Shown here one piece after another: positions 3,759-53,532 of a stretch of DNA of 64,000 nt. The notes beneath the pieces were generated by a model. That model was given only the letters and a program-made list of their open reading frames with translations. It ran no database searches and was not told the origin of the DNA. The position numbers and the translations under genes were made by a program. Each line of letters opens with the position of its first letter. Within the stretch, counting starts at the first letter, position 1. Source of the DNA: Escherichia coli (GTDB lineage: Bacteria; Pseudomonadota; Gammaproteobacteria; Enterobacterales; Enterobacteriaceae); the NCBI RefSeq assembly GCF_050920415.1, contig NZ_CP169309.1; one strand, written 5' to 3'.

Positions 3759-4325
3759 ATGTTAAATAAAAGTGCTATTGCTGCGGCATTAGTCATGTTC
3801 ACCAGTTCAGCCTTCGCGCTTGATGGCGGTCAATTAGATTTCTCAGGTTTGGTCAGTGACAATACCTGCGCCCTGCACGTCAACGGTGGCGCGCAGGACG
3901 GTCAAATTACTCTGCAAACCGCTACAACCGCTGAAGTTAATGGCGCAGGTGTCGTAAAGACTGCCGACGTTGGTGCAAAACCGGAAGCCTTTTCTATTGC
4001 GATAGATTGCTCGGGCGATCCAAAAAATAACGCCAGTCTGAGCATGGGTTCTGTGTTCTTCAGTAACAGCCAGGGCACTCTGAACAACGATCTCTCTATC
4101 AGCCAGGCGGCAACCGGGGTCGCTATTGCCATTCACTACCTTACCAATGCCACCACCTACCAACAGGTGAAAGTTAACGACAGCACCGATGTTAAAAACC
4201 TTGTGTTTACCAACGGCAAAGCGGTTTACAACTTTAAAGCGTCGTATGTTAAACAGGCAGCAACAGTTGACGCAACGGCAGGTTATGTCAAAACCAACGC
4301 CGCTTATACAGTGACTTATCAGTAA
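3759..4325 (+). CDS. yadN: Fimbrial major subunit-like protein (chaperone-usher pilin)
   Basis: ORF 3714..4325; ATG 3759 preceded by RBS taagga; N-terminal signal peptide MLNKSAIAAALVMFTSSAFA; pilin-like C-terminal beta-strand (YTVTYQ). Confidence 0.88.
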   Translation: MLNKSAIAAALVMFTSSAFALDGGQLDFSGLVSDNTCALHVNGGAQDGQITLQTATTAEVNGAGVVKTADVGAKPEAFSIAIDCSGDPKNNASLSMGSVFFSNSQGTLNNDLSISQAATGVAIAIHYLTNATTYQQVKVNDSTDVKNLVFTNGKAVYNFKASYVKQAATVDATAGYVKTNAAYTVTYQ

Positions 4326-4381
4326 ATCTCTGCATCACCCGACAGCCCACTGCTGTCGGGTAACTCAATAAGGATAGTGTT

Positions 4382-5125
4382 ATGACCAGGATGTGTCAGT
4401 TTGTTGTTTCCGCTGTTTTCATCGCATCGACAGCCGTTTTCAGCCTCACCGCGCAAGCAGATATCGTGCTTTCCGGTACGCGCATTATTTACAATGCAGA
4501 CCAGAAAGACGTTACTTTGCGCATGGAAAACAAAGGCGCCCGCCCATTATTAGTCCAGACCTGGATTGATACCGGCAGCGAGAATGCCGACCCCAGCACA
4601 TTGAAAGTGCCTTTTACCGTGACGCCACCGGTTTCCCGCGTTGATGGTAAAAAAGGCCAAACGGTTAAAATTGCGTGGAACGCCAGCCAGACCCTTCCAG
4701 CCGATCGCGAAAGCATTTATTGGTTCAATGCGCTGGAAGTTCCCCCCAAGATGAGCGATGCCGATGCCAAAGGAAAAAACATTCTGCAACTGGCTTTCCG
4801 CACCCGTATCAAGCTGTTCTATCGCCCAACCGGTCTGGCGGGTAACCCGGCTGATGCACCAAAACAGTTAACCTGGCGTCTCCAGTCTTCAGCCGGAAAA
4901 GTGGTGCTGCAGGCGACAAACCCTACGCCTTATCACGTCTCATTCAGCAGCATTACCCTTGGCTCAGGCGGTAATAAATATACCGTGGAGACCAGTATGG
5001 TCGCACCCATGAGCAGTGCGGAAATGGTGGTAAAAGGCGCTCCCCGTTCTGTGTCTGGTGCAACAGTTGATTACTCCGCCATTAATGATTTTGGCGGTGG
5101 CATTGACGGCCAAGTCAAACTTTGA
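4382..5125 (+). CDS. yadV: Periplasmic fimbrial chaperone (PapD-like)
   Basis: ORF 247 aa with signal peptide and PapD-family chaperone layout; sits between pilin and usher genes. Confidence 0.88.
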   Translation: MTRMCQFVVSAVFIASTAVFSLTAQADIVLSGTRIIYNADQKDVTLRMENKGARPLLVQTWIDTGSENADPSTLKVPFTVTPPVSRVDGKKGQTVKIAWNASQTLPADRESIYWFNALEVPPKMSDADAKGKNILQLAFRTRIKLFYRPTGLAGNPADAPKQLTWRLQSSAGKVVLQATNPTPYHVSFSSITLGSGGNKYTVETSMVAPMSSAEMVVKGAPRSVSGATVDYSAINDFGGGIDGQVKL

Positions 5126-5157
5126 TGCCCACAAATTATATCGGCTGAGATCGTACA

Positions 5158-7764: not shown

Positions 7765-7780
7765 TGTTCCAGGAGAGGAA

Positions 7781-8353
7781 ATGAGAACTTTTTTACTACC
7801 GCCCCTGCTGCTGCTGACGTCGCTTTGTCTCCGCCCTGCACTGGCAACCGATCTTTCGGTCAACTTTACCGCAACAATCAAAGAGACGACCTGTGCCATG
7901 ACGCTCAATGCATTGAATGGGGCCAATATCAGCGGTGATGCCACAGCGAATAACTATTATCTGGATCTGCCTGACATGGGCGTTTCGGACATTGTGAATA
8001 AATCGTCAATGTCGGAGGCTAATTTTAAAATCCTTCCCAGCAATTGTAATAACTATATTTCCAGCATGTCGATGACGCTTAATGGCGCAGTCAGCGGCTA
8101 TACAGATTCGTTAATCGCTAATGACCAGACCGTTTCGGGGCATACCAACTATGTTGGTCTTGGTATTAAACGTATGAACGCAAATGAAAATCTCCGTTTT
8201 AAACTCAACGGTAGCCAGCGAGTCACCTGGACGAGTGATGAAATAAGTAATGGATTGGATCTCACTGCCATGCTTCGTCAGACCACCACAGCGAATCCGA
8301 TCACCACTGGACAATTCCAGGCCAAAGTGACTTTCGTCTTTACCTACGAATAG
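7781..8353 (+). CDS. yadM: Fimbrial subunit-like protein
   Basis: ORF 190 aa, signal peptide, pilin-like C-terminus (VTFVFTYE). Confidence 0.85.
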   Translation: MRTFLLPPLLLLTSLCLRPALATDLSVNFTATIKETTCAMTLNALNGANISGDATANNYYLDLPDMGVSDIVNKSSMSEANFKILPSNCNNYISSMSMTLNGAVSGYTDSLIANDQTVSGHTNYVGLGIKRMNANENLRFKLNGSQRVTWTSDEISNGLDLTAMLRQTTTANPITTGQFQAKVTFVFTYE

Positions 8354-8364
8354 CAGGTTTGTTT

Positions 8365-8961
8365 ATGAATTATCAAAATATAACCTTTGTATTGCTGCTG
8401 TGCTTTGGATATATCGCCATCGGCCACGCCGCCAGTAGCTCTATGGACGTTACGGTACGCGCTAAGGTCATTGCCAGTACCTGCACGGCGGAATTGCGCA
8501 ATGCGCAGGATCAGCAAGCCACCACCATCGCAATTGGCGATGTCTATCTCAACGAGCTTTCCGCTAAATCGAAATACCAGAACTTCAGTCTGGTGTTTTC
8601 AAACTGCGAAGGGTTAGCAAAGGATCAGGCCAAAGTTGTGCTTTCGGCACAGACGGGCTGCGATGGCGCTTCCAGTTCCGGTGGCGGATATCGTAATGAA
8701 CTGACGACGGCGGACGATGATGCGGCAACCGGTGTCGCAGTTGAAGTGTGGACGACGAATCAGCCAGAAGGTCAGGGCAGCATTCAGCTTAATTGTAAAA
8801 CCAAACCGACCAGCATTGTCGATTTAACCGCGGCAACAGGCTCGAATATTGTCCACTGGCCGCTCAGTGCCCGAATTGTCATTGCATCGGATAATACCAT
8901 CGCGGATGTTCGTGCAGGTCAATTCTCCACCAACGCTATATTTTTTGTAACCTATGAGTAG
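8365..8961 (+). CDS. yadL: Fimbrial subunit-like protein
   Basis: ORF 8359..8961 (alternative start); ATG at 8365 with upstream aggt; signal peptide; C-terminus FFVTYE. Confidence 0.82.
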   Translation: MNYQNITFVLLLCFGYIAIGHAASSSMDVTVRAKVIASTCTAELRNAQDQQATTIAIGDVYLNELSAKSKYQNFSLVFSNCEGLAKDQAKVVLSAQTGCDGASSSGGGYRNELTTADDDAATGVAVEVWTTNQPEGQGSIQLNCKTKPTSIVDLTAATGSNIVHWPLSARIVIASDNTIADVRAGQFSTNAIFFVTYE

Positions 8962-9534
8962 ATGATGATGAAAACATTTATCTACATATTCGCACTGTGG
9001 TTTTCATACAATGCCATTGCCGCCAGCACCAATATTAATATGACCGCCAATATTGTCAGCACCAGCTGTAAAGTCACGTTCGACAATAGTGGGAGTATTG
9101 ATTTAGGAACGGTGGATTACAACTACCTGAACAATAATACTTCCGTCGATCGCGTTTATACCGGTGGTCACTCGTTCTACATTTCTGTCAGCGACTGTGC
9201 GCAGGTTGCAGGAAAGAACCCTGCTCGTCTTACAGTGAGTTTTACGCCCGTCGCTGGTACGCTCGGTGCAACAAACCAACAGGTTTTCGCTAATCAGACG
9301 ACTAATGGCGCTAAAAATGTCGGCATCGTGATCTTATCCACTCAGGATGCGCAAAATATTTTCAATGTACTGGATACCCACGGTCAACCGCAGAGCATTT
9401 ATCCTGTGAGTGCCGATCAGTTAGCTAATGCTACCTATCATTTTCATGCGAGGATGCAGAAGGTCGACCTGACGCAAGCCGCGACAGCCGGCTTAGTACG
9501 AGCCAGTGTGTTTGTGGGTGTTTATTATGAGTAA
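8962..9534 (+). CDS. yadK: Fimbrial subunit-like protein
   Basis: ORF 190 aa; signal peptide; pilin-like C-terminus VFVGVYYE. Confidence 0.85.
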   Translation: MMMKTFIYIFALWFSYNAIAASTNINMTANIVSTSCKVTFDNSGSIDLGTVDYNYLNNNTSVDRVYTGGHSFYISVSDCAQVAGKNPARLTVSFTPVAGTLGATNQQVFANQTTNGAKNVGIVILSTQDAQNIFNVLDTHGQPQSIYPVSADQLANATYHFHARMQKVDLTQAATAGLVRASVFVGVYYE

Positions 9535-10775
9535 TGTTTTTCGTTTTCAAGGATGATGAAATGAACCGTTTACAGCTAACAACGTGGGGCAACATTTTAT
9601 TGCTATTATTGCCCCTATATTCAGGCTGCCTCCAGGCCGCATACACACTTGTTGTCGGAGGTAAAGATACCACTGGTGATCGAGTTCAAAACAATGGTCC
9701 GGCTAGTGATGGTTATTCCACTACCATCTATACTACGGGTAGCAGCCAGGTCGTGATTGGGCGTGCCACAGCACTGCAATACAGCAATGTTAAAATCAAG
9801 CTAGATCTGGATACCGCTGCCATTCCTAATACAGGGGTTATTTACTGCTCCCCTGACGGTACGGGCGGACCGATTTCACTGGAGAACCATTTTATTAAAA
9901 GTCCGTACATCTACGATGGTCACCAACTTTTTAAAACCAATATTCAAGGGCTGTATTTTACCGCACGCATGTATGGTCTTTGGTCGTATGGTGTAGAGTC
10001 ATCAGACAACTTTTATATCGGTGATACAAATCCACAACCACTGGATCTTCGCACATCAACGTGCCCGGGCAGTTCTGGATGGTATCTGACCCTTGGTGGC
10101 TTAGTCTCTCAAATGGACATCGACTTATATAACGACGCAACCTTTGACCCCGATGCCAGCGGCAGCATTGCCCTGCTGAGTGACGCACCCTATCACTACT
10201 CTCTGAAAAATCAGTCCCCTGGCGGAAATCTCAAATCCCGTACAATTTTTCAGACGTTTAATATGGGAAATGTCACGTTAACCTCTCCTACCTGTTTGTC
10301 GGCGGTCCTCACTGGCAGCAGTGTCAGTCAGGGTGACACGGTAGGTTTGGGCGAATACAGTCCAAAAGAAGTTATTGACGGTGCGAATGGTGTGCCTTTT
10401 TCGATCACACTAAAAGGATGTTACCGGGTAACAGACATCGAAGTAAAATTGACGACAGGAGCTCCTGCGCTATCAGCGTCGCTATTGGGCAACTCGCTTA
10501 CAGCAAATGCGGCAAGCGGTGTAGGTGTAGAGATCAAAGGTAAGCCCAACTCACATTATCCAGAAGTGACGCTGATGCCCAACGACGCCTCCTCAATCTA
10601 TAAAGCGTATGGCGATAACCCGGATAACTCAAACGGTATTATTGGCAGTAACTCTTCGGGTTCTCCTGCCGACCAAACGCTGAATTTCACCGCGACTCTT
10701 AAGCAGGATGACAATCAGCAGATCCGGGCCGGAGATTTTAAAGCGACTGGCATCTTCTCAATCACCTACCCCTGA
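9534..10775 (+). CDS. yadC: Fimbrial tip adhesin-like protein (two-domain pilin)
   Basis: ORF 413 aa; start overlaps yadK stop (TAATG); longer than structural pilins, C-terminal pilin-like strand (GIFSITYP). Confidence 0.85.
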   Translation: MFFVFKDDEMNRLQLTTWGNILLLLLPLYSGCLQAAYTLVVGGKDTTGDRVQNNGPASDGYSTTIYTTGSSQVVIGRATALQYSNVKIKLDLDTAAIPNTGVIYCSPDGTGGPISLENHFIKSPYIYDGHQLFKTNIQGLYFTARMYGLWSYGVESSDNFYIGDTNPQPLDLRTSTCPGSSGWYLTLGGLVSQMDIDLYNDATFDPDASGSIALLSDAPYHYSLKNQSPGGNLKSRTIFQTFNMGNVTLTSPTCLSAVLTGSSVSQGDTVGLGEYSPKEVIDGANGVPFSITLKGCYRVTDIEVKLTTGAPALSASLLGNSLTANAASGVGVEIKGKPNSHYPEVTLMPNDASSIYKAYGDNPDNSNGIIGSNSSGSPADQTLNFTATLKQDDNQQIRAGDFKATGIFSITYP

Positions 10776-39781: not shown

Positions 39782-40185
39782 TCATGTCTGTGACGCTAAA
39801 GTAACAAAGTATTCACCTTATGTCCATACAGGTTTTGATTGAAATCATGAAACTGTGCACATTTTAACAACTTGACATATATAACGTTTCAAAGTTGTAA
39901 CTATGCACAAATGTAGACTTTACGTAGGAAAGGGATTTTTTAACGATTATTAAACTATAAAAATCCGAATTGAACCGATTCACTTACCAATTTTGTGATT
40001 TTTAATTCAATTAAAACGAATTTAAATTCATTCTGCATATTGAGAGGGGTTGAGGCTGAGCTTTACAAACGGTTTCTTTTTAAGCAACTCATCTTCAACC
40101 ATGCATAAAGCGGGTGCATTCGCTGTCGCATACCATTATTCTTGATCTGACGGAAGTCTTTTTGTAACAATTCAAACTTCTTTGA

Positions 40186-40203
40186 TGTAAACAAATTAAT
40201 ACA
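40186..40203. promoter_or_regulatory. Candidate TyrR box (tgtaaa-N6-aataca) upstream of aroP
   Basis: Partial match to TGTAAA-N6-TTTACA, ~70-90 bp upstream of aroP ATG. Confidence 0.3.
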
Positions 40204-40273
40204 ACAAACGGAATTGCAAACTTACACACGCATCACTGCGTAGATCAAAAAAACAATCACCGCACGAGGTTTC

Positions 40274-41647
40274 ATGATGGAAGGTCAACAGCACGGCGAG
40301 CAGCTAAAGCGCGGCCTTAAAAACCGCCATATTCAGCTTATCGCGCTGGGTGGCGCGATAGGGACAGGGCTATTCCTGGGTAGCGCCTCCGTAATACAGT
40401 CCGCAGGGCCAGGGATTATCCTGGGATACGCCATTGCTGGTTTTATCGCCTTTCTGATCATGCGTCAGCTGGGTGAAATGGTGGTCGAAGAACCTGTCGC
40501 AGGCTCCTTTAGCCACTTTGCTTATAAATACTGGGGCAGTTTTGCCGGTTTCGCCTCTGGCTGGAACTACTGGGTACTGTACGTTTTAGTTGCCATGGCA
40601 GAGCTGACTGCCGTGGGTAAATACATTCAGTTCTGGTATCCGGAAATCCCAACCTGGGTTTCTGCCGCCGTGTTCTTTGTGGTGATCAACGCCATCAACC
40701 TGACAAACGTAAAAGTGTTTGGTGAGATGGAGTTCTGGTTTGCCATTATCAAAGTTATCGCGGTGGTAGCAATGATCATCTTCGGCGGCTGGCTGCTATT
40801 CAGCGGCAACGGCGGCCCGCAGGCGACCGTTAGCAACCTGTGGGATCAGGGTGGTTTCCTGCCGCACGGCTTCACCGGGCTGGTGATGATGATGGCGATT
40901 ATCATGTTCTCTTTCGGCGGTCTGGAACTGGTGGGGATCACCGCAGCAGAAGCTGATAATCCGGAGCAAAGTATCCCGAAAGCAACTAACCAGGTTATCT
41001 ACCGCATCCTGATTTTCTACATTGGTTCGTTAGCCGTTCTGCTCTCGCTGATGCCATGGACCCGCGTTACTGCTGATACCAGTCCGTTTGTACTGATCTT
41101 CCACGAATTGGGCGATACCTTTGTGGCTAATGCGCTGAACATCGTGGTACTGACTGCTGCGCTCTCCGTGTACAACAGCTGCGTATATTGCAACAGCCGT
41201 ATGCTGTTTGGTCTGGCACAACAGGGCAACGCGCCAAAAGCGCTGGCGTCTGTCGACAAACGCGGTGTACCGGTTAACACTATTCTGGTGTCTGCGCTGG
41301 TTACGGCATTGTGCGTGCTGATTAACTACCTTGCACCGGAATCCGCATTCGGACTGTTAATGGCGCTGGTGGTATCTGCACTGGTCATCAACTGGGCGAT
41401 GATCAGTCTGGCGCATATGAAATTCCGTCGTGCCAAACAAGAACAAGGCGTGGTAACTCGCTTCCCTGCCCTGCTTTATCCGCTGGGTAACTGGATCTGC
41501 CTGCTGTTTATGGCGGCGGTACTGGTGATTATGCTGATGACCCCAGGAATGGCGATTTCGGTATACCTGATCCCGGTATGGCTGATCGTGTTAGGTATCG
41601 GCTATCTGTTTAAAGAGAAAACCGCCAAAGCCGTAAAAGCGCATTAA
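40274..41647 (+). CDS. aroP: Aromatic amino acid:H+ symporter (APC family)
   Basis: ORF 457 aa, 12-TM amino acid permease. Confidence 0.95.
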   Translation: MMEGQQHGEQLKRGLKNRHIQLIALGGAIGTGLFLGSASVIQSAGPGIILGYAIAGFIAFLIMRQLGEMVVEEPVAGSFSHFAYKYWGSFAGFASGWNYWVLYVLVAMAELTAVGKYIQFWYPEIPTWVSAAVFFVVINAINLTNVKVFGEMEFWFAIIKVIAVVAMIIFGGWLLFSGNGGPQATVSNLWDQGGFLPHGFTGLVMMMAIIMFSFGGLELVGITAAEADNPEQSIPKATNQVIYRILIFYIGSLAVLLSLMPWTRVTADTSPFVLIFHELGDTFVANALNIVVLTAALSVYNSCVYCNSRMLFGLAQQGNAPKALASVDKRGVPVNTILVSALVTALCVLINYLAPESAFGLLMALVVSALVINWAMISLAHMKFRRAKQEQGVVTRFPALLYPLGNWICLLFMAAVLVIMLMTPGMAISVYLIPVWLIVLGIGYLFKEKTAKAVKAH

Positions 41648-41656
41648 TCTCTCTAC

Positions 41657-41681
41657 GCCCTCACCCGTGCAGGGTGAGGGC
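41657..41681. terminator. Stem-loop between convergent aroP and ampE (putative terminator)
   Basis: gccctcaccc-gtgca-gggtgagggc 10-bp perfect stem; weak U-tracts. Confidence 0.5.
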
Positions 41682-41689
41682 AATAATCT

Positions 41690-42544
41690 TTACACCAACG
41701 CCCCGTAAATCGTCAGTAGCGCAATTACCACCACGACCACGAACGAGGTTTTCTTCGCCATTGAAACCGCTGCCTTTGGCGTCTCCACCTTATCGACATG
41801 CGGTTCACGCGCCAGAGAGAACTGTGCCAGACGCGTTAATACCTGATATTGCGAAGTATGGAAATCACCCAGCGAAGCAAACCAGGCCGGTAACGCTTTC
41901 TCACCATGACCGATCAAGGCATATACCACACCCGCAAGACGAACCGGCACCCAATCCAGTACATGAAGCACGGCATCAATGCCGGACTGTAAACGATGAT
42001 GCGGCGTCTGGTATCGCGCCAGCCAGTATTGCCATGCACGCAAAAACGCATACCCCATCAGCGTAACGGGTCCCCAGGTTCCCCCCACAATCAGCCAGAA
42101 CAACGGAGCAAGATAAAAACGAAAGTTAATCCACAGCAATGCATTTTGCAGCTCACGCAAATACTCACGTTCATCGCAGCCTGCCGGGACGCCGTGAATC
42201 ATGGTGAGTTCGCCAGCCATCGTGGCACGGGCATGGCTATCATTACGTGAAGCAGCTGTCAGATAAGCATGATAATGAAGACGAACTTTACCTGCGCCAA
42301 TACACAGCAAACCAATCAGCAGCCACACCAGCAGCGTGGGAACGTTGAACAATACTCCCTGCAATGCGCGTAACAGTAAAAAAGTCACGCCCATCGCAAT
42401 AATGGTCATGCCTAATGTGCGCCCGAGAGAAAAATGTTTCACCCGCCGGAAGAACGCCTCAAGACGATGATCAAGCTGCCAGTGCTCGCCCAGCTTAAAC
42501 AGGCGCTCGAAAATTAACACCAATAGGGTTGTAAACAGCGTCAT
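41690..42544 (-). CDS. ampE: Inner membrane protein AmpE (ampicillin-resistance regulatory operon)
   Basis: ORF 41690..42583; recognised start [17 protein letters not shown] (ATG 42544), overlaps ampD stop. Confidence 0.9.
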
Positions 42545-43092
42545 GTTGTCTCCTTGCTGACCAGGGCGCGAAACCGTGCCCAATCAAAGGCGGGGCCGGG
42601 ATCGGTTTTCCGATCCGGCGCAATATCACAATGGCCCGTCATGTTATTAGCGATATCTGGATAGCGATCAATCAGTGCCCGCGTAACCGCCGCAAGCTGT
42701 TGATACTGCGCATCGGTATACGCCAGCGTATCGGTGCCTTCCAGCTCAATCCCAATAGAAAAATCATTGCAGCGTTCGCGCCCCTGATACTGAGAGACTC
42801 CGGCATGCCAGGCACGTTTATCGAAAGGAACATACTGGACTATTTCACCATCGCGGCGAATCAAACAGTGAGCGGAGACGCGCAAATGGGCGATCTCAGC
42901 AAAGAAAGGATGTGCCTGCGGATCAATAGTTCCAGTGAATAATGCGTCGATCCACGGACCGCCAAACTCGCCTGGCGGCAGGCTAATATTGTGCACCACC
43001 AGCAGGGTGGGTGTTTCGTCATCCGGGCGGCAATCGTAATGTGGTGAGGGAACGCGGCGCGCGCCAACCAGCCACCCCTGTTCTAACAACAT
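42541..43092 (-). CDS. ampD: 1,6-anhydro-N-acetylmuramyl-L-alanine amidase
   Basis: ORF 183 aa [26 protein letters not shown]...; amidase_2 family. Confidence 0.93.
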
Positions 43093-43119
43093 GCAGGATC
43101 TCCTTATATGTGGTGCTAA

Positions 43120-44073
<954 letters not shown>

Positions 44074-44275
44074 TTGCTGACAGATTTATCCGCTCCATCG
44101 CGGGCGGATAATCTCCCCTTTCCCAACTTTCTTCGTAACGCCTCGCAAATTTCTTGTCTTTCGCTGCAACGTAATAAAAAACTCCGGAAGCTGCTTTCCC
44201 GTTTCGTTTTTTGCCCCTCGCTTGTGCTGATGGCGTTTGCCAAAGTAGCGCCAACCAAATCAAGGAGCGAAACAA

Positions 44276-44716
44276 ATGGACAAGCAACGCGGTTTTACAC
44301 TTATCGAACTGATGGTGGTTATTGGCATCATTGCCATTTTAAGCGCCATTGGTATTCCCGCTTATCAAAACTACCTGCGCAAAGCCGCACTCACCGACAT
44401 GCTACAAACCTTTGTGCCTTACCGTACCGCCGTAGAGTTGTGCGCGCTGGAACATGGTGGATTAGATACCTGCGACGGTGGCAGCAATGGCATTCCCTCG
44501 CCTACCACCACCCGCTATGTTTCAGCCATGAGTGTGGCAAAGGGCGTGGTGTCGCTGACCGGGCAAGAAAGTCTCAATGGGCTAAGCGTCGTCATGACAC
44601 CGGGTTGGGATAACGCAAACGGCGTCACCGGCTGGACGCGCAACTGCAATATTCAAAGTGACAGCGCATTGCAGCAAGCCTGCGAAGATGTCTTTCGCTT
44701 TGATGACGCCAACTAA
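44276..44716 (+). CDS. ppdD: Type IV prepilin (major pilin-like)
   Basis: ORF 146 aa; class III leader MDKQRG|FTLIELMVVIGIIAILSAIGIP. Confidence 0.93.
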   Translation: MDKQRGFTLIELMVVIGIIAILSAIGIPAYQNYLRKAALTDMLQTFVPYRTAVELCALEHGGLDTCDGGSNGIPSPTTTRYVSAMSVAKGVVSLTGQESLNGLSVVMTPGWDNANGVTGWTRNCNIQSDSALQQACEDVFRFDDAN

Positions 44717-44725
44717 GGAGCGGCA

Positions 44726-46111
44726 ATGAATATTCCACAGCTCACCGCCCTGTGTCTGCGTTATCAGGGAGTCTTGCTGGATGCCAGCGAAGAGGTGGTT
44801 CATGTTGCGGTGGTCGATGCCCCTTCGCATGAGCTACTGGACGCATTGCATTTCGCTACCACCAAACGTATTGAGATCACCTGCTGGACGCGCCAACAAA
44901 TGGAAGGTCACGCCAGTCGCACCCAACAGACATTGCCCGTAGCTATTCATGAGAAGCATCAGCCCAAAGCAGAGTTGCTGACTCGAACGTTACAATCTGC
45001 GCTGGAACAACGCGCGTCTGATATTCATATCGAACCAGCGGACAATGCCTACCGCATCCGCTTGCGTATCGACGGTGTATTGCATCCTTTACCGGATGTT
45101 TTACCGGATGCCGGAGTCGCATTAACCGCCAGATTAAAAGTGCTGGGCAACCTGGATATTGCGGAACATCGCCTGCCGCAGGACGGGCAATTCACTGTCG
45201 AACTGGCAGGAAACGCCGTCTCATTTCGTATTGCGACCTTACCATGCCAGGGTGGTGAAAAGGTGGTATTAAGGTTGTTACAGCAGGTGAGCCAGGCACT
45301 GGATATCAACACGCTGGGGATGCAGCCGTTACAACTGGCGGACTTTGCTCATGCCTTGCAACAACCACAGGGACTGGTGCTGGTAACTGGCCCTACAGGC
45401 AGCGGCAAAACGGTCACGCTTTATAGTGCCCTGCAAACGCTGAATACCGCTGACATTAATATTTGTAGCGTCGAAGATCCGGTTGAGATCCCCATAGCCG
45501 GACTAAACCAGACGCAAATCCATCCGCGTGCCGGTCTTACCTTTCAGGGCGTTTTGCGTGCGTTATTGCGCCAGGACCCTGACGTCATCATGATCGGAGA
45601 GATCCGCGATGGCGAAACAGCAGAGATCGCTATTAAAGCGGCGCAAACCGGTCACCTGGAGTTGTCTACCCTACACACCAATTCCACCACTGAAACGCTG
45701 GTACGTTTACAGCAAATGGGAGTCGCCCGCTGGATGCTCTCATCGGCGCTTACGCTGGTAATAGCCCAGCGTCTGGTACGTAAACTTTGCCCACATTGTC
45801 GCCTGCAGCAAGGGGAGCCCATCCATATTCCAGACAATGTATGGCCGTCGCCGCTGCCCCGCTGGCAAGCACCCGGTTGTGTACATTGCTACCACGGTTT
45901 TTATGGTCGCACGGCCTTATTTGAAGTTCTGCCCATAACACCGGTCATACGTCAGCTTATTTCCGCTAATACCGACGTTGAATCGCTGGAAACGCACGCC
46001 CGACAGGCGGGTATGCGAACGCTTTTTGAAAACGGCTGCCTGGCGGTGGAGCAAGGCTTAACCACCTTTGAAGAGTTAATCCGCGTATTGGGAATGCCGT
46101 ATGGCGAGTAA
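44726..46111 (+). CDS. hofB: Type IV pilus assembly ATPase (PilB/GspE family)
   Basis: ORF 461 aa; Walker A GPTGSGKT; tetracysteine motif CPHC...CVHC. Confidence 0.92.
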   Translation: MNIPQLTALCLRYQGVLLDASEEVVHVAVVDAPSHELLDALHFATTKRIEITCWTRQQMEGHASRTQQTLPVAIHEKHQPKAELLTRTLQSALEQRASDIHIEPADNAYRIRLRIDGVLHPLPDVLPDAGVALTARLKVLGNLDIAEHRLPQDGQFTVELAGNAVSFRIATLPCQGGEKVVLRLLQQVSQALDINTLGMQPLQLADFAHALQQPQGLVLVTGPTGSGKTVTLYSALQTLNTADINICSVEDPVEIPIAGLNQTQIHPRAGLTFQGVLRALLRQDPDVIMIGEIRDGETAEIAIKAAQTGHLELSTLHTNSTTETLVRLQQMGVARWMLSSALTLVIAQRLVRKLCPHCRLQQGEPIHIPDNVWPSPLPRWQAPGCVHCYHGFYGRTALFEVLPITPVIRQLISANTDVESLETHARQAGMRTLFENGCLAVEQGLTTFEELIRVLGMPYGE

Positions 46112-47303
46112 GCAACTCTGGCGCTGGCGTGGCATAACCGGCGACGGCAATGCGCAAGATGGGATGCTATGGGCAGAGAGCCGTGCTTTGCTGCTCATAG
46201 CACTACAGCAACAGATGGTTACCCCACTTAGCCTGAAGCGAATCGCCATCAATTCTGCGCAGTGGCGAGGAGATAAAAGCGCGGAAGTCATTCATCAACT
46301 GGCGACGCTACTCAAAGCCGGGTTAACGCTTTCTGAAGGGCTGGCACTGCTGGCGGAACAGCATCCCAGTAAGCAATGGCAAGCGTTGCTGCAATCGCTG
46401 GCGCACGATCTCGAACAGGGCATTGCTTTTTCCAATGCCTTATTACCCTGGTCAGAGGTATTTCCGCCGCTCTATCAGGCAATGATCCGCACGGGGGAAT
46501 TGACTGGTAAGTTAGATGAATGTTGCTTTGAACTTGCTCGACAGCAAAAAGCCCAACGTCAGTTAGCCGATAAAGTGAAATCAGCGTTGCGTTATCCCAT
46601 CATCATTTTAGCGATGGCAATCATGGTGGTTGTGGCAATGCTGCATTTTGTACTGCCGGAGTTTGCTGCTATCTACAAGACCTTTAACACCCCATTACCG
46701 GCGCTAACGCAGGGGATCATGACGCTGGCAGACTTTAGTGGCGAATGGGGCTGGCTGCTGCTGTTGTTCGGCTTACTGCTGGCAATAGCCAATAAGTTGC
46801 TGGTGCGCCGCCCGACCTGGCTCATCGTGAGGCAAAAATCACTGTTACGCATCCCAATTATGGGTTCACTGATGCGAGGGCAAAAACTCACGCAGATCTT
46901 TACGATTCTGGCGCTGACACAAAGTGCAGGCATTACTTTTTTACAGGGCGTAGAGAGCGTCAGAGCAACAATGCGCTGTCAGTACTGGGAGCAACTTCTG
47001 ACACAAATCCAGCACGATATCAGTAACGGTCATCCTATCTGGCTGGCGCTAAAAAATGCCGGTGAGTTTAGCCCGCTCTGTTTGCAATTAGTGAGAACAG
47101 GAGAGGCATCCGGTTCGCTGGATCTCATGTTAGACAACCTCGCCCGTCATCATCGGGATAACACCATGGCGCTGGCGGATAACCTTGCAGCCTTGCTCGA
47201 ACCGGTGTTGCTGGTCATAACGGGAGGAATTATCGGTACGCTAGTGGTGGCAATGTATTTGCCAATTTTCCATTTAGGCGATGCGATGAGTGGGATGGGA
47301 TAA
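46101..47303 (+). CDS. hofC: Type IV pilus inner membrane platform protein (PilC/GspF family)
   Basis: ORF 400 aa; start overlaps hofB stop. Confidence 0.92.
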   Translation: MASKQLWRWRGITGDGNAQDGMLWAESRALLLIALQQQMVTPLSLKRIAINSAQWRGDKSAEVIHQLATLLKAGLTLSEGLALLAEQHPSKQWQALLQSLAHDLEQGIAFSNALLPWSEVFPPLYQAMIRTGELTGKLDECCFELARQQKAQRQLADKVKSALRYPIIILAMAIMVVVAMLHFVLPEFAAIYKTFNTPLPALTQGIMTLADFSGEWGWLLLLFGLLLAIANKLLVRRPTWLIVRQKSLLRIPIMGSLMRGQKLTQIFTILALTQSAGITFLQGVESVRATMRCQYWEQLLTQIQHDISNGHPIWLALKNAGEFSPLCLQLVRTGEASGSLDLMLDNLARHHRDNTMALADNLAALLEPVLLVITGGIIGTLVVAMYLPIFHLGDAMSGMG

Positions 47304-47304
47304 C

Positions 47305-47328
47305 GCTGGCGTGTTACTCCACGCCAGC
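47305..47328. terminator. Stem-loop between convergent hofC and guaC
   Basis: gctggcgtg-ttactc-cacgccagc perfect 9-bp stem. Confidence 0.5.
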
Positions 47329-47337
47329 ATTGGGAGA

Positions 47338-48381
47338 TTACAGATTGTTGAAGATGCGGTTTTCTTGTTCCTGTACACGGATAAATGTGGTGCGCTTGGT
47401 CAGCTCTTTCAGGCGTGAAGCCCCAACGTATGTACAAGCTGAACGCAGGCCGCCCAAAATATCACGCGCGGTATTTTCAACCGGGCCTCGCAGCGGCAGC
47501 TTAACGGTTTTACCTTCTGCTGCGCGATATTCCGCAACGCCGCCAACGTGACGTTTCATCGCAGACTCGGAGCTCATGCCGTAGAACAGCATAAATTTCT
47601 CGCCGTTCTCCTCAACGATGCGACCACCGCTCTCTTCGTGGCCCGCCAGCATGCCGCCAAGCATGACGAAATCGGCACCGCCGCCAAAGGCTTTCGCGAC
47701 ATCGCCCGGCGTGGTGCAGCCACCGTCGCTGACGATCATTCCGCCCAGACCATGCGCAGCATCGGCACATTCGATCACCGCAGAAAGTTGCGGATAACCG
47801 ACGCCTGTTTTGACGCGAGTTGTACAAACAGAACCTGGGCCAATGCCAACTTTAACGATATCAGCACCGGAGAGGATAAGCTCCTCACACATTTCACCTG
47901 TCACGACGTTGCCAGCACAAATGGTTTTGGTCGGCCACGCTTCACGCGCTTTCGCAACGAACTGCACGAAGTGTTCGGAATAACCATTCGCCACGTCAAT
48001 ACAAACGAAGTTTAATGCCGGGTTCAGGTCGAGAATCTGTTTAGTTTTTTCGAAGTCCGCATCAGACGTACCGGTAGAAACCATCACATGTTTCAGCACA
48101 TCAGCGGAAGAATTGTTGATAAACGCTTGCCACTCTTCGACAGAATAGTGTTTATGCACAGCAGTCAGAATATCAAAAGAAGCCAGCGCAGAGGCCATAG
48201 AAAATGTGCCTACGGTGTCCATATTTGCGGCGATAATCGGCACGCCGGACCAGCTCTGACCTGAATGTTTGAAGGTGAATTGACGTTCCAGTTCAACATC
48301 GGAACGGCTTTTAAGAGTGGAGCGTTTAGGGCGGATGAGAACGTCTTTAAAACCTAACTTCAGATCTTCTTCAATACGCAT
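47338..48381 (-). CDS. guaC: GMP reductase
   Basis: ORF 347 aa [22 protein letters not shown]...; IMPDH/GMPR family. Confidence 0.96.
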
Positions 48382-48605
48382 GTGCGGATTCCTGGGGTTA
48401 ATGGCTATAAGGGTAAGAGCGCAACTCCAGTGACGCTATCATACGCACTAATCAATGCGGCGCAAGACTGCGAAATTGTCTTTTTTTACGCTACAATCCC
48501 ATAAATTTACCTGGTAAATAGTGAGCGAACGTTTCATCAATTTCGCTTTCGTGCGCTCATTTTTAACGTTTTGATAATCATGATGAATTCCCGGGAATAT
48601 AAATT

Positions 48606-49226
48606 ATGAGGTATATAGTTGCCTTAACGGGAGGCATTGGCAGTGGCAAGAGTACCGTTGCCAATGCGTTTGCTGATCTCGGAATTAACGTCATTGATGC
48701 CGATATTATTGCGCATCAGGTGGTTGAACCAGGTGCACCTGCGCTACATGCAATTGCTGATCACTTTGGCGCTAACATGATTGCTGCTGATGGAACATTG
48801 CAGCGCCGGGCCTTGCGCGAGCGGATTTTCGCCAACCCGGAAGAGAAAAACTGGCTTAACGCCCTGCTGCATCCGCTGATTCAGCAAGAGACGCAACACC
48901 AGATCCAGCAAGCATCTTCCCCCTATGTACTTTGGGTTGTGCCATTGCTGGTAGAAAACTCATTGTATAAAAAAGCGAATCGAGTGCTGGTGGTGGATGT
49001 CAGCCCAGAAACGCAACTTAAACGCACCATGCAGCGCGATGATGTCACTCGCGAGCATGTTGAACAAATTCTTGCTGCTCAGGCAACGCGCGAAGCCCGC
49101 CTTGCCGTGGCAGATGACGTCATTGATAATAACGGCGCACCGGATGCTATCGCATCGGATGTTGCCCGCCTGCACGCACACTATTTGCAGCTTGCGTCGC
49201 AGTTTGTCTCACAGGAAAAACCGTAA
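48606..49226 (+). CDS. coaE: Dephospho-CoA kinase
   Basis: ORF 206 aa; P-loop GGIGSGKST. Confidence 0.95.
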
Positions 49227-49969
49227 TGCAGACCCAGGTCCTTTTTGAACATCCACTAAATGAAAAAATGCGTACATGGCTGCGCATTGAGTTTTTGATT
49301 CAGCAACTCACCGTTAATCTACCCATCGTTGACCACGCTGGCGCGCTGCATTTCTTCCGTAATGTCAGTGAATTACTGGATGTTTTCGAGCGCGGCGAAG
49401 TCCGTACTGAGCTGTTGAAAGAACTTGACCGGCAGCAACGTAAACTCCAGACCTGGATTGGCGTGCCTGGCGTGGACCAGAGCCGTATTGAAGCATTAAT
49501 TCAGCAGTTAAAAGCGGCGGGGAGCGTATTAATTTCCGCGCCGCGTATCGGGCAATTTCTGCGTGAAGATCGTTTGATTGCTCTGGTGCGTCAGCGACTG
49601 AGCATCCCAGGCGGCTGTTGTAGCTTTGATTTACCTACATTGCACATTTGGCTGCATCTACCCCAGGCGCAGCGCGACAGCCAGGTAGAAACCTGGATTG
49701 CCAGCCTGAACCCGCTCAACCAGGCACTTACCATGGTGCTGGATTTAATTCGCCAGTCGGCCCCCTTCCGTAAACAAACCAGCCTGAATGGTTTTTATCA
49801 GGATAACGGTGGCGATGCCGACTTGCTGCGCCTGAATCTGTCGCTCGATTCACAGCTTTATCCGCAAATTTCCGGTCATAAGAGCCGTTTTGCCATTCGT
49901 TTTATGCCGCTGGACAGTGAAAACGGACAGGTACCGGAACGTCTGGATTTCGAACTGGCCTGTTGCTAA
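49226..49969 (+). CDS. zapD: Cell division protein ZapD (FtsZ-associated)
   Basis: ORF 247 aa [24 protein letters not shown]...; start overlaps coaE stop (TAATG). Confidence 0.93.
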
Positions 49970-49978
49970 GGAGTAAAA

Positions 49979-50176
49979 ATGTCAGAAACTATTACGGTGA
50001 ATTGCCCAACCTGCGGGAAAACGGTGGTGTGGGGTGAAATCAGCCCGTTTCGGCCATTTTGTTCCAAACGTTGTCAGCTGATCGACCTCGGAGAATGGGC
50101 TGCTGAAGAAAAACGAATCCCCAGCAGTGGCGATCTTTCCGAAAGCGATGACTGGAGCGAAGAGCCAAAGCAGTGA
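49979..50176 (+). CDS. yacG: DNA gyrase inhibitor YacG (zinc finger)
   Basis: ORF 65 aa; C-x2-C...C-x3-C motif (CPTCGK...CSKRCQ). Confidence 0.93.
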
Positions 50177-50186
50177 CATTTTATCT

Positions 50187-50368
50187 GATGCGACGCTGGC
50201 CTGATAAGACGCGGGCAGCGTCGCATCAGGCATCGTGTGCAAATGTCGGATGCGGCGGGAACGCCTTATCCGACCTGCAAGATCTTTTATATCAACGTGT
50301 TAAAAAATTGTAGGCCTGATAAGACGCGCCAGCGTCGCATCGGGCATCCAGTGTAAATGTTGGATGCC
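50187..50368. repeat. BIME: cluster of 3-4 REP palindromic units
   Basis: Repeated gcctgataagacgcg...cgtcgcatcaggc and gtcggatgcggcg...gccttatccgac units in alternating orientation. Confidence 0.8.
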
Positions 50369-50377
50369 TTAACCGAT

Positions 50378-50767
50378 CTACAGACACTTAAGCTTCGCAA
50401 TTACCGGTTCATTGGCTGGCGGAAAATCATCGGCATTCAGACCAACCAGCGACATCCACTCACCGGGTTGCCCTTCTTTACCCCACGGCTCCCCTTCCCA
50501 GCTTTCGACCAGCCAGAACCACAGAGTTATATGCCTGTCCGGGAATTCATATTCCAGTTTTTCAAATAGCGAAAAATGTTGTGGGGTAATCCCGACTTCT
50601 TCCTGAAGTTCACGCACCACCGCCTGTTCCGGCGTTTCGCCCATTTCAATTTTACCGCCAGGAAACTCCAGTTTATTCGCCATGTGCGCATCTGCGGCGC
50701 GACGGGTTATAAAGATTTCATTGTTCTCGTTGCGAATAATACCTACCGCAATTTGCAGCTTTTTCAT
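50378..50767 (-). CDS. mutT: 8-oxo-dGTP diphosphatase (Nudix hydrolase)
   Basis: ORF 129 aa; Nudix box GGKIEMGETPEQAVVRELQEEVG. Confidence 0.95.
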   Translation of the reverse strand: MKKLQIAVGIIRNENNEIFITRRAADAHMANKLEFPGGKIEMGETPEQAVVRELQEEVGITPQHFSLFEKLEYEFPDRHITLWFWLVESWEGEPWGKEGQPGEWMSLVGLNADDFPPANEPVIAKLKCL

Positions 50768-50781
50768 TGTCTTAAACCTAT

Positions 50782-50809
50782 AAAAAAGGCGCAGAATCCT
50801 GCGCCTTTT
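50782..50809. terminator. Bidirectional rho-independent terminator between secA and mutT
   Basis: aaaaaa-ggcgcag-aatc-ctgcgcc-tttt. Confidence 0.8.
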
Positions 50810-50826
50810 ACTTCAACTGTTAGCTT

Positions 50827-53532
50827 TTATTGCAGGCGACCGTGGCACTGCTTGTATTTTTTACCAGAACCGCACGGGCAAGGATCATTACGTCCAACTT
50901 TGCGTTCACCAGTTTGTGCCGCCAGTGCAGCTGCGGCTGCAGAGTCGTCATCCTGATGGCTAAGCTGCTGCATTTGCGCTAAACGCTCGGCTTCCATACG
51001 ACGCTGTTGTTCCAGCTCCTCAACCTCTTCAGGCATACGTACCTGAACTTTGCTCAGCGTGCTGATAACTTCATATTTCAACGACTCCAGCATCGCTGCA
51101 AACATGGAGAACGATTCACGTTTGTATTCCTGCTTCGGATCTTTCTGTGCATAGCCACGCAGGTGGATACCTTGACGCAGATAATCCATCGCCGCCAGGT
51201 GCTCTTTCCACAGGGAGTCAAGCGTTTGCAGCATGACGCCTTTCTCGAAGTGACGCATCATCTCAGCGCCAACCACTTCTTCTTTACGCTGATACACTTC
51301 GATGGACTGCGCCAGAATACGCTCACGCAGCGTCTCTTCATGCAGTTCTGGCTCTTTGTCCAGCCACTCGGCAATCGGCAAATCGAGGTCGAAATCGTTC
51401 TTCAGACGTTCCTGCAGCCCCGGAATATCCCACATTTCTTCCAGCGACTGCGGCGGAATGTAGGCATCGATGGTCGCTTTGAACACATCTTCACGAATGC
51501 TGTTGATGGTATCGCTCACATCGCTGACATCCAGCAGTTCATTACGCTGGGAGTAAATGGCGCGACGCTGATCGTTAGCCACGTCATCATATTCCAGCAG
51601 TTGCTTACGAATATCGAAGTTACGGCTTTCAACTTTACGCTGAGCGTTGGCAATCGCTTTGGTCACCCACGGGTGCTCGATGGCTTCGCCTGGTTTCATA
51701 CCCAGTTTACGCATCATGCCGGAAACACGGTCAGAAGCAAAAATACGCATCAGCGCATCTTCCATCGACAGGTAGAAACGGGAAGAACCGGCATCCCCCT
51801 GGCGCCCAGAACGACCGCGTAGCTGGTTATCGATACGACGAGATTCGTGACGTTCTGTACCGATGATATGCAGACCACCTGCAGCCAGTACCGCATCGTG
51901 ACGCACCTGCCAGTCGGCTTTGATTTTTTCAATTTGCTCTGCGGTCGGATTTTCCAGCGCGGCAACTTCTGCCTGCCAGCTACCACCGAGCACAATATCT
52001 GTACCACGACCCGCCATGTTAGTCGCGATAGTCACCGCCGCGGGATAACCCGCTTGTGCAACAATCGCTGCTTCGTTAGCGTGGAATTTGGCGTTCAGAA
52101 CGTTGTGTTTGATACCGGCTTTGGTCAGCTCGTTTGACACCAATTCCGATTTTTCGATGGAGATAGTACCCACCAGCACCGGCTGGCCTTTCGCAGTACG
52201 TTCTTTGATATCTTCAATGATCGCCTGAATTTTTTCCGCTTCAGTCATGTAGACCAGGTCCGGCAGATCTTTACGAATCATTGGACGGTTGGTCGGAACA
52301 ACGACGGTATCCAGCTTATAGATGGAGCTGAATTCGAAAGCTTCGGTATCAGCAGTACCGGTCATCCCCGCCAGTTTTTCATACAGACGGAAGTAGTTCT
52401 GGAAGGTGATCGACGCCAGCGTCTGGTTTTCGTTCTGGATCTGTACACCTTCTTTCGCTTCCACTGCCTGATGCAGGCCATCGGACCAACGACGTCCCTG
52501 CATGGTACGACCGGTGTGTTCGTCAACGATGATAACTTCACCATCTTTAACGATGTAGTCGACGTCTCGGGTAAACAGCGCATGAGCGCGCAGCGCCGCC
52601 GTTACGTGGTGCATCAGCATGATGTTGGCCGGAGAGTACAGAGACTCCCCTTCATCCATGATGCCTTCTTTCACCAGCAGTTCTTCAATCAGCACCAGAC
52701 CACGTTCGGTCAGGTTCACCTGGCGAGATTTTTCGTCCACCGAGAAGTGGCCTTCGCCCTGGAAGGTTTCGGAGTCTTCTTTTTCCTGACGGATCAGGTG
52801 CGGAATAATTTTATTCACGCGTTTATACATTTCCGAGCTGTCTTCTGCCGGGCCGGAAATGATCAGCGGTGTACGCGCTTCATCGATCAGGATGGAGTCC
52901 ACTTCGTCCACCAGCGCATAGTGCAGTTTACGCTGTACACGTTCTTCAGGGCTGAACGCCATGTTATCGCGCAGGTAGTCAAAGCCGTATTCGTTGTTCG
53001 TACCGTAAGTGATGTCAGCTGCGTAAGCTTCACGCTTCGCCGGTGCTGGCATGCCCGGCAGGTTGATACCGACAGTCAGGCCAAGGAATTCAAACAGCGG
53101 ACGGTTGTTTTCGGCGTCACGTTGCGCCAGGTAGTCGTTGACGGTAACAACGTGTACGCCCTTACCGGTTAATGCGTTCAGGTAAGCAGGCAGCGTTGCG
53201 GTCAGGGTTTTACCTTCACCGGTACGCATTTCCGCGATGCAGCGTTCGTTAAGAACCATACCGCCGAGTAACTGAACGTCGAAGTGACGCATACCAAAGA
53301 CGCGCTTACTTGCCTCACGCACCACAGCGAAAGCTTCTGGGATCAGATTTTCCAGCACTTCGCCTTTTTCCAGACGTGCACGAAACTCTGCGGTTTTCCC
53401 TTTCAGTTCTTCGTCGGAGAGTTTTTCCATCTCCGGTTCCATGGCATTGATGATGTTGACGACTTTGCGCATCCGGCGCAGGGTGCGATCGTTACGACTA
53501 CCGAAAACTTTAGTTAATAATTTGATTAGCAT
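50827..53532 (-). CDS. secA: Protein translocase ATPase SecA
   Basis: ORF 901 aa [23 protein letters not shown]...; C-terminal zinc-binding [14 protein letters not shown]. Confidence 0.97.

Follow-up and report, generated by a model that had tools for sequence, protein, structure and literature searches.

Positions 44276-47303 of the Escherichia coli DNA analysed here, a stretch of 64,000 nucleotides to which we refer as the window, very probably represent the ppdD-hofB-hofC (hcpABC) operon of the chromosomal type IVa pilus and DNA-uptake machine. An earlier note on this DNA had described a co-linear pilin gene, assembly ATPase gene and platform gene, the latter two with overlapping stop and start. 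The listing of open reading frames returned identical boundaries for all three genes, all of them intact and on the plus strand, and an overlap of 11 nt between hofB and hofC can be read in the sequence, as can a gap of 9 nt between ppdD and hofB (Table 1). The operon, its scattered partners, its Sxy/CRP-S regulation, the pilus structure and the roles in DNA uptake and in adhesion of EHEC are already known. Gene identity, intactness, operon layout, partner presence and selective constraint were computed here, whereas statements on regulation, assembly and DNA uptake come from published work on the K-12 and EHEC alleles.

The window corresponds to the E. coli nadC-guaC region, and the locus is present within this same context in 5,424 of 5,426 complete E. 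coli genomes. The window also carries an unrelated chaperone-usher fimbrial operon, and its yacC is a PulS/OutS-family pilotin-like gene. An Rfam scan of the ppdD-hofB-hofC locus gave no match. The hairpin that follows hofC has a folding energy of -18.1 kcal/mol (z-score -3.2 relative to shuffled sequences) and is accompanied by a U-tract on neither strand; it is possibly a terminator shared by the two convergent genes or an mRNA-stabilising stem.

Table 1. Features of the ppdD-hofB-hofC locus, in positions of the window
Feature	Position	Strand	Basis
Segment equivalent to the K-12 ppdD gel-shift fragment (CRP-bound)	44062..44192	+	Primers ppdDF/ppdDR of PMC1635313 mapped via window/K-12 alignment
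Candidate CRP-S site TTCTTCGTAACGCCTCGCAAAT, C at position 6, G at position 17	44129..44150	+	Pattern search
Shine-Dalgarno AAGGAG of ppdD, 8 nt 5' of ATG	44262..44267	+	Read from sequence
ppdD (hcpA), type IVa major prepilin, 146 aa	44276..44716	+	ORF listing, Pfam/NCBIfam models, motifs
Shine-Dalgarno AAGGAG of hofB, overlapping the ppdD stop codon	44715..44720	+	Read from sequence
hofB (hcpB; PGAP name 'GspE'), PilB/GspE-type hexameric assembly ATPase, 461 aa	44726..46111	+	T2SSE, NF007755, motifs
hofC (hcpC), PilC/GspF-type inner-membrane platform, 400 aa	46101..47303	+	Two T2SSF stretches, NF007861
GC-rich hairpin with a perfect 9-bp stem, between the stop codons of the convergent genes hofC and guaC	47305..47328		Sequence and fold energy

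Identity of the pilin, motor and platform proteins

Judged by its sequence, PpdD is a type IVa major pilin of the PpdD/HcpA orthologue group (NF007862), for which processing and polymerisation are known from the K-12 and EHEC alleles. The proposal of a class III prepilin is borne out by the leader MDKQRG, directly followed by FTLIELMVV, and by matches to family models: PpdD scores 39.9 bits against Pfam N_methyl (cutoff 21.2), 35.9 bits against TIGR02532 (cutoff 16.3) and, over residues 1-145, 269.3 bits against the NF007862 equivalog (cutoff 138), with the Pfam Pilin model, at 21.6 bits, slightly below its cutoff of 22. The motif check places the cleavage site between G and F at the end of the 6-aa leader and E5 within the hydrophobic N-terminal helix; cysteines occupy mature positions 50, 60, 118 and 130. 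The mature protein is identical at 139 of 140 residues to chain A of PDB 6gv9, the subunit of the EHEC type IV pilus solved by cryo-EM.

The claim that hofB encodes a PilB-like ATPase agrees with scores of 482 bits against T2SSE (PF00437) and 811.9 bits against the NF007755 equivalog (cutoff 617), and with a full set of intact motifs: Walker A (GPTGSGKT at 222), the Asp box (EDPVE at 250), Walker B (VIMIGEIRD at 287), the His box (TGH at 308) and a tetracysteine zinc motif (CPHC at 355 and CVHC at 385). Its nearest relatives of solved structure are PilB (5zfr, 5tsg and 3jc8) and GspE (4kss and 1p9r). HofB stays below the cutoffs of both strict models, with 480.5 bits against PilB TIGR02538 (cutoff 675.65), where the alignment starts only at profile position 168, and 450.5 bits against GspE TIGR02533 (cutoff 630.25). 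Such scores suggest that HofB belongs to a shorter subfamily of its own, probably PilB-like in its working.

HofC, for which a PilC-like platform had been proposed, matches T2SSF (PF00482) in two stretches (189.6 bits) and exceeds the cutoff of the NF007861 equivalog (654 bits against 401). It is below cutoff for the PilC equivalogs and for the GspF equivalog (263 bits against 424), and it aligns with the PilC chain of 3jc8 with an E-value of 4.6e-45. The earlier note had named domain searches as a possible source of refutation; these searches support the pilin, PilB and PilC assignments alike. The identities of pilin, ATPase and platform can be regarded as settled because they rest on solved structures together with curated family models.

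Scattered partners and control of the operon

In the proposed mechanism, the prepilin form of PpdD would have its 6-residue leader cut off after Gly-6 by a peptidase encoded elsewhere, which may be the GspO-locus enzyme beside bfr and/or PppA. Sitting on HofC as its platform in the inner membrane, a hexamer of HofB would polymerise mature PpdD into a filament, presumably primed by the minor pilins PpdA, PpdB, YgdB and PpdC. This filament is expected to traverse the HofMNOP alignment complex and then the HofQ secretin, both encoded at distant loci.

The annotation of the closest genome, NZ_CP169399.1, which is more than 99.97% identical over the aligned window, agrees with the earlier note: across the 64 kb it lists neither a secretin nor a prepilin peptidase nor any minor pilin of the type IV class. 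The note had expected the partners elsewhere, and hofMNOPQ, ppdAB-ygdB-ppdC and prepilin peptidase genes were all found at distant loci. The hofMNOPQ genes, coding for the secretin and a PilMNOP-like alignment complex, are present in 5,425 of the 5,426 genomes and lie unflagged at 405201-408487 of the closest one. The minor pilin genes ppdA-ppdB-ygdB-ppdC, present in as many genomes (5,425 of 5,426), adjoin recC in the closest genome (978734-980470) and are likewise unflagged. Also at a distance from the window, this genome has yggR, annotated as a PilT/PilU-family ATPase and a candidate retraction ATPase for PpdD pili. For comparison, one preprint gives ppdD plus 12 assembly genes as the set used to build PpdD pili (bioRxiv 10.1101/856302).

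Two prepilin peptidase genes were found in the closest genome: pppA (269 aa), beside which a full T2SS-beta cluster is encoded, and a gene adjoining bfr for a standalone 155-aa Peptidase_A24 protein. The peptidase of the bfr-rpsJ locus thus comes in two forms, the 225-aa GspO and the standalone 155-aa enzyme, which are 41% identical. We considered the shorter form as a truncated gspO and rejected this; since it shares only 41% identity with K-12 GspO and its Peptidase_A24 domain is complete, it is a form in its own right rather than what a deletion has left of gspO. Among the 5,426 genomes, 3,159 carry the K-12-type gspO, 2,255 the 155-aa form and 3,640 pppA. The first two counts add up to 5,414, a sum suggesting that almost all genomes have either the one or the other form of the bfr-rpsJ peptidase.

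As to control, transcription would start at a weak promoter 5' of ppdD, where cAMP-CRP and Sxy (TfoX) are both required and act through a non-canonical CRP-S site, a dependence that would account for the silence of the operon in ordinary laboratory culture. When expressed, the machine probably takes up DNA and allows it to be used as a nutrient, and in some pathotypes it probably also mediates adhesion (haemorrhagic coli pilus). A sigma-70 consensus promoter scan over 43900-47500 found none, which fits an activator-dependent promoter. The candidate CRP-S 22-mer is identical in a K-12-like strain, while nearby intergenic bases vary, and it lies inside the segment equivalent to the published gel-shift fragment. 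Because the pattern is not enriched over chance (33 matches in the window against 44 expected), we infer, rather than read off, that this 22-mer is the probable CRP-S site in this strain.

The suggestion of a cryptic competence or type IV pilus module is in line with the published dependence on Sxy and CRP-S, laboratory silence and hofQ-dependent DNA uptake (PMC1635313, PMC3330819). Transcription of ppdD is induced 90-fold, dependent on both Sxy and CRP (PMC1635313); induction of Sxy leads to PpdD processing, and DNA uptake needs hofQ (PMC3330819). In culture, PpdD was made by none of 72 ECOR strains, and K-12 likewise leaves the operon unexpressed in the laboratory; chromosomal transformation has never been seen to occur naturally in E. 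coli, and for sxy no natural inducing condition is known (PMC3330819). EHEC O157:H7 forms the haemorrhagic coli pilus (HCP), and K-12 displays surface PpdD upon expressing EHEC ppdD-hofBC (PMC2920817, PMC2649431). PpdD has also been assembled in the heterologous hosts Pseudomonas aeruginosa and Klebsiella oxytoca (PMC2649431).

Selection, alleles and rival readings

Purifying selection acts on all three genes but is relaxed, with constraint about four times weaker than that of the flanking genes. In ten diverse genomes, piN/piS is about 0.10-0.115 for ppdD, hofB and hofC (0.101 for ppdD) versus 0.026 for the flanks, and the synonymous diversity of hofB and hofC is about 1.5-2.3 times that of the flanks. 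Against K-12, dN/dS of the three genes is 0.11-0.13. Among ten annotated genomes inspected, a sample not randomly drawn, two have a premature stop in hofB or hofC, in addition to one in-frame deletion, and ppdD is intact in all ten; hofC has a premature stop (W240*) in the closest genome, NZ_CP169399.1, and hofB an internal stop in NZ_CP019012.1. Given relaxed constraint and natural premature stops, at least some lineages can do without the system.

In comparison with a K-12-like strain, PpdD shows no amino acid difference, whereas HofB differs at 13 of 461 and HofC at 18 of 400 residues. At the nucleotide level, one of 441 positions of ppdD differs from that strain, compared with a dS of 0.07-0.18 for its neighbours. 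This is a matter of a shared allele: abnormal synonymous conservation of ppdD was rejected, its piS of 0.035 in the ten diverse genomes being near that of nadC (0.044) and guaC (0.049). The hofC allele of the window is rare: 5 genomes match it at 99% identity or more, and 4,448 at 90-95%; the same allele is carried, for example, by NZ_CP043414.1. It is an outlier, and hofC is more divergent than the flanks (93.6-95.1% versus 98-98.6% identity in typical genomes). We infer that the allele is functional in this strain. Import specific to the locus, which is at least 99% identical in 81 genomes, was partly rejected, for flanking housekeeping segments are also rare (10 and 80 genomes). Flanks that are rare at this threshold as well indicate that the strain belongs to a rare lineage; what this leaves is hofC, with its greater divergence and its outlying allele.

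Such data invite the view that the operon is a non-functional relic in E. coli, transcriptionally dead and drifting towards pseudogenes. It would explain the laboratory silence of K-12 and the 72 ECOR strains (PMC3330819), a piN/piS about fourfold that of flanking housekeeping genes, the raised synonymous diversity of hofB and hofC, as expected of weakly expressed genes, and the premature stops and in-frame deletion among the ten inspected genomes. Yet a piN/piS of 0.10-0.115 is far under neutrality, all motifs are intact in the window, and the locus and partner operons are kept in more than 99.9% of the 5,426 genomes. Moreover, published experiments have shown that transcription can be induced, that the pilin is processed, that pili form and that DNA uptake depends on hofQ, and we consider a relic very unlikely. 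Even less credible, with a very small probability, is a set of type II secretion parts building a pseudopilus for protein export and not a pilus. GspE, GspF and GspG are indeed homologous ATPase, platform and pilin-like proteins, HofB and HofC being homologues of the first two, and PGAP calls HofB 'type II secretion system protein GspE'. However, HofB and HofC fall below the GspE and GspF equivalog cutoffs, as does PpdD below that of GspG (29 against 89), while all three pass their own models; the genome also has complete gsp clusters, separate from this operon and equipped with E, F and G genes. Furthermore, the partners HofQ (secretin) and HofMNOP are of the PilMNOPQ type, and PpdD forms true pili (6gv9).

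The intact ppdD alongside broken hofB or hofC raises a different issue, namely that in such genomes PpdD is assembled by another type IV filament machine, for example the T2SS-beta beside pppA. The two genomes of ten with hofB or hofC stops, the full T2SS-beta of the genome with hofC W240* and the assembly of PpdD in P. aeruginosa and K. oxytoca (PMC2649431) could be taken that way. On the other hand, ppdD is at most one third as long as hofB or hofC and is a smaller mutational target, its piN/piS of 0.101 is not lower than those of the other two genes, and ten non-randomly sampled genomes are few; we find this reading extremely improbable. The more general proposition, that hofB and hofC are recurrently lost in natural lineages while ppdD is kept, the pilin having a use that needs neither HofB nor HofC (for example assembly by T2SS-beta), seems very unlikely too. 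If it were true, no processing enzyme of the system other than the dimorphic bfr-rpsJ peptidase would be retained universally. The operon of a type IVa pilus and DNA-uptake machine remains our preferred interpretation.

Comparison with known systems

As a discovery the locus carries little weight, the system having been published in its main aspects, but it illustrates that a split type IV pilus system can be correctly recognised from raw sequence. The population data are a modest addition: the pilus genes belong to the core genome, purifying selection on them is relaxed but real, and the genes for motor and platform are inactivated from time to time. The rare hofC allele and the bfr-rpsJ peptidase gene in one of two forms represent a further small addition.

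Type II secretion loci, as discussed above, offer homologous components and the label that PGAP gives to HofB, and differ in that the Gsp equivalog cutoffs are missed here and that gsp clusters are found separately in the same genomes. In the type IVa core of Pseudomonas and Myxococcus, PilA-PilB-PilC[-PilD], the major pilin, extension ATPase and platform are likewise encoded side by side, and the catalytic motifs are all conserved. In contrast, the E. coli cluster is without pilD, the peptidase being borrowed from type II secretion-linked loci, and HofB is without approximately the first 100 N-terminal residues of PilB. The pilABCD genes of Haemophilus influenzae and Vibrio cholerae are orthologous and under the same control by CRP-S, Sxy (TfoX) and cAMP-CRP (PMC1635313), and DNA uptake in these competent bacteria proceeds via the ComE/HofQ secretin, as in E. 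coli (PMC3330819). Compared with them, the E. coli operon again lacks pilD, and it has neither natural chromosomal transformation nor a known inducing signal. The closest counterparts are E. coli K-12 ppdD-hofB-hofC (b0108-b0106) and hcpABC of EHEC O157:H7, which have the same nadC-ppdD-hofB-hofC-guaC order, the same gene lengths, the 9-nt gap and the 11-nt overlap, and from which the window differs by allele only.

The ppdD-hofB-hofC genes and their products

The earlier note described a type IV pilin gene followed by PilB-like ATPase and PilC-like platform genes; this observation is confirmed, and its interpretation as a split type IV pilus module is supported. An ORF listing of 40000-52000 reproduced exactly the claimed boundaries of three co-linear ORFs (see table), and reading the sequence bore out the overlapping hofB/hofC stop and start, the hofC ATG lying 11 nt within hofB. 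The ppdD stop codon (TAA, 44714-44716) overlaps the AAGGAG Shine-Dalgarno sequence of hofB, placed 5 nt upstream of the hofB ATG, and a second AAGGAG lies 8 nt upstream of the ppdD ATG. Such an arrangement suggests that the three genes share one transcript and are translationally coupled.

Profile searches upheld all three assignments, with NCBIfam scores above the cutoffs. PpdD matched Pfam N_methyl and scored 21.6 bits against Pfam Pilin, slightly below the model cutoff of 22, but reached 269 bits (cutoff 138) against the equivalog NF007862, 'prepilin peptidase-dependent pilin'. It carries E5 and four cysteines (mature positions 50, 60, 118 and 130), and the mature protein is identical at 139 of 140 positions to the subunit of the EHEC pilus solved by cryo-EM (6gv9); an NMR structure (6gms) is available too. 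HofB matched T2SSE (482 bits), with a weak N-terminal MshEN match, and NF007755 (812 bits, cutoff 617); it has kept the Walker A, Asp box, Walker B and His box motifs and two CxxC pairs, and its nearest solved relatives are the PilB and GspE hexamers. HofC gave two T2SSF matches and 654 bits (cutoff 401) against NF007861 (HofC), its nearest solved relative being PilC of the Myxococcus machine model 3jc8. Since none of the strict NCBIfam equivalogs PilB, GspE, GspF, GspG and PilC reached its cutoff with the three proteins, these are PilA/PilB/PilC-like in working but form separate enterobacterial subfamilies. That PGAP calls HofB 'GspE' is a quirk of naming.

Coordinates of the features discussed (L numbers denote stretches of the genome named)
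Feature	Sequence	Position	Strand	Remarks
Chaperone-usher fimbrial operon	window	~3759-10775	+	seven genes; folK-panB interval, position of K-12 yad genes; coordinates adjusted by IS621 offset
IS110-family, IS621-like insertion	window	~21925-23200	-	1.28 kb; between gcd (ends 21813) and cueO (23293-24843)
yacC	window	25009-25356	+	PulS/OutS-family pilotin-like lipoprotein (PF09691, 37.6 bits)
ppdD promoter fragment	window	44062-44192		aligned by published primers (PMC1635313)
Candidate CRP-S site	window	44129-44150		TTCTTCGTAACGCCTCGCAAAT
ppdD	window	44276-44716	+	146 aa; N-terminus MDKQRG/FTLIELMVV
hofB	window	44726-46111	+	461 aa
hofC	window	46101-47303	+	400 aa
hofC compared with K-12	window	46112-47303		differences concentrated at 46480-46580 and 46780-46880
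Perfect 9-bp hairpin	window	47305-47328		occupies gap between convergent hofC and guaC; -18.1 kcal/mol, z-score -3.2
hofMNOPQ	NZ_CP169399.1	405-408 kb		
Peptidase_A24 protein	NZ_CP169399.1	453375-453842 (L008:33375-33842)	-	155 aa; bfr-rpsJ interval
ppdA-C operon	NZ_CP169399.1	979-980 kb		adjoins recC
hofC, W240 to stop	NZ_CP169399.1	L002:11851-13053		
hofB, internal stop	NZ_CP019012.1 (Ecol_AZ161)	L019:1728-3113		
hofB, in-frame 12-nt deletion	NZ_CP020106.1 (13E0780)	L020:1727-3100		
guaC	NZ_CP192739.1 (K-12-like laboratory strain)	L003:23339-24382		pseudogene flag, internal stop; no bearing on window

Partner genes elsewhere in the genome

Annotation of the 64 kb lists neither a secretin nor a prepilin peptidase nor a type IV minor pilin, as the earlier note had said; of the genes in the window, only yacC is related to secretin biogenesis. 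The fimbrial operon of the folK-panB interval encodes a pilus of another class and is unconnected with ppdD-hofB-hofC. All the partners proposed to lie elsewhere (hofQ, ppdA-C and a prepilin peptidase) were found at other loci of the closest genome, NZ_CP169399.1, where pppA is part of a complete T2SS-beta/SslE cluster and a PilT-like yggR is also present. With K-12 loci as queries, hofMNOPQ and ppdA-ppdB-ygdB-ppdC were each detected in 5,425 of 5,426 complete E. coli genomes, pppA in 3,640 and K-12-type gspO in only 3,159.

In K-12 and the other gspO-positive genomes the bfr-rpsJ interval holds a T2SS-alpha gsp cluster ending in a 225-aa GspO; in NZ_CP169399.1 it holds instead a standalone protein with a complete Peptidase_A24 domain, which is just 41% identical to K-12 GspO and is without its first ~70 residues. 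This shorter protein occurs in 2,255 genomes, O157:H7 and O104:H4 among them. The locus is dimorphic, and the two counts sum to 5,414 of 5,426; these totals suggest that nearly every genome has one peptidase form or the other. If so, the pilus gene set would be complete species-wide, though split over at least four loci.

Conservation, alleles and natural disruptions

The window is the nadC-guaC region of the E. coli chromosome, with the gene order thpR, yad fimbrial operon, panBCD, gcd, cueO, yacC, speED, acnB, lpd-aceFE-pdhR, aroP, ampED, nadC, ppdD, hofB, hofC, guaC, coaE, zapD, yacG, mutT, secA and dcw cluster. Megablast found the locus in 5,424 of the 5,426 genomes, precisely the number in which the flanking segments were matched as well, and base composition showed no shift across it. 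NZ_CP169399.1 is more than 99.97% identical to the aligned window. Within the locus one base differs, turning hofC W240 into a stop, while hofC of the window itself is intact; outside the aligned sequence the only difference is the IS621-like insertion, which NZ_CP169399.1 lacks. The transposase of this insertion matches the 'IS110 family RNA-guided transposase' model over its first 214 aa, and because the reading frame then carries on through two more frames, the copy looks frameshifted and degenerate. The insertion edges match repeats at a median of ~19 places per E. coli genome.

The window ppdD has matches of at least 99% identity in 3,536 genomes. At the same threshold hofC matched only 5 genomes (90-95% in 4,448), whereas K-12 hofC falls below 95% in only 7. 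The housekeeping flanks also have few matches of at least 99% (10 and 80 genomes), yet share about 98-98.6% identity with typical genomes. The window strain is therefore a member of a rare lineage, and hofC is additionally a fast-evolving gene; the window hofC allele is rare and divergent, which may stem from import or fast drift.

Against the K-12-like strain, dN/dS was 0.127 for hofB and 0.110 for hofC, with most neighbours at 0.00-0.02. Across ten diverse genomes, piN/piS was 0.101 (ppdD), 0.115 (hofB) and 0.112 (hofC), the nadC and guaC values both being 0.026. At synonymous sites hofB (0.074) and hofC (0.098) were roughly 1.5-2.3 times as diverse as the flanks, which fits weakly expressed genes, given E. 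coli codon usage; the ten-genome analysis ruled out unusual synonymous conservation of ppdD. Premature stops occur in two of ten annotated genomes inspected, affecting hofC in one and hofB in the other, and the hofB deletion occurs in one; ppdD is intact in all ten. The genes are therefore kept by selection yet dispensable in some lineages.

Regulation and relation to known systems

A promoter scan detected no sigma-70 consensus promoter across the locus. In K-12, Sxy raises ppdD 90-fold, induction requires CRP and cAMP, CRP binds the promoter fragment weakly, and the promoter has one predicted CRP-S site and zero canonical CRP sites (PMC1635313). Inside the corresponding fragment of the window, a pattern search found a 22-mer with the C6/G17 signature of CRP-S sites, unchanged in K-12 amid variable intergenic positions. 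This is probably the CRP-S site, though the pattern by itself showed no enrichment over chance.

Sxy induction leads to processed PpdD and hofQ-dependent DNA uptake; E. coli shows no natural transformation, and PpdD was found in culture in 0 of 72 ECOR strains (PMC3330819). EHEC O157:H7 on Minca medium produces PpdD (HcpA) pili, which play a part in adhesion, twitching and cytokine induction (PMC2920817). K-12 expressing EHEC ppdD-hofBC displays PpdD at the surface, and hofQ helps UPEC to persist in the kidney (PMC2649431). The locus is the well-characterised, already known ppdD-hofB-hofC operon, and PpdD pili have been built from ppdD cloned with 12 assembly genes, namely hofB, hofC, hofMNOPQ, ppdA, ppdB, ygdB, ppdC as well as gspO (bioRxiv 10.1101/856302).
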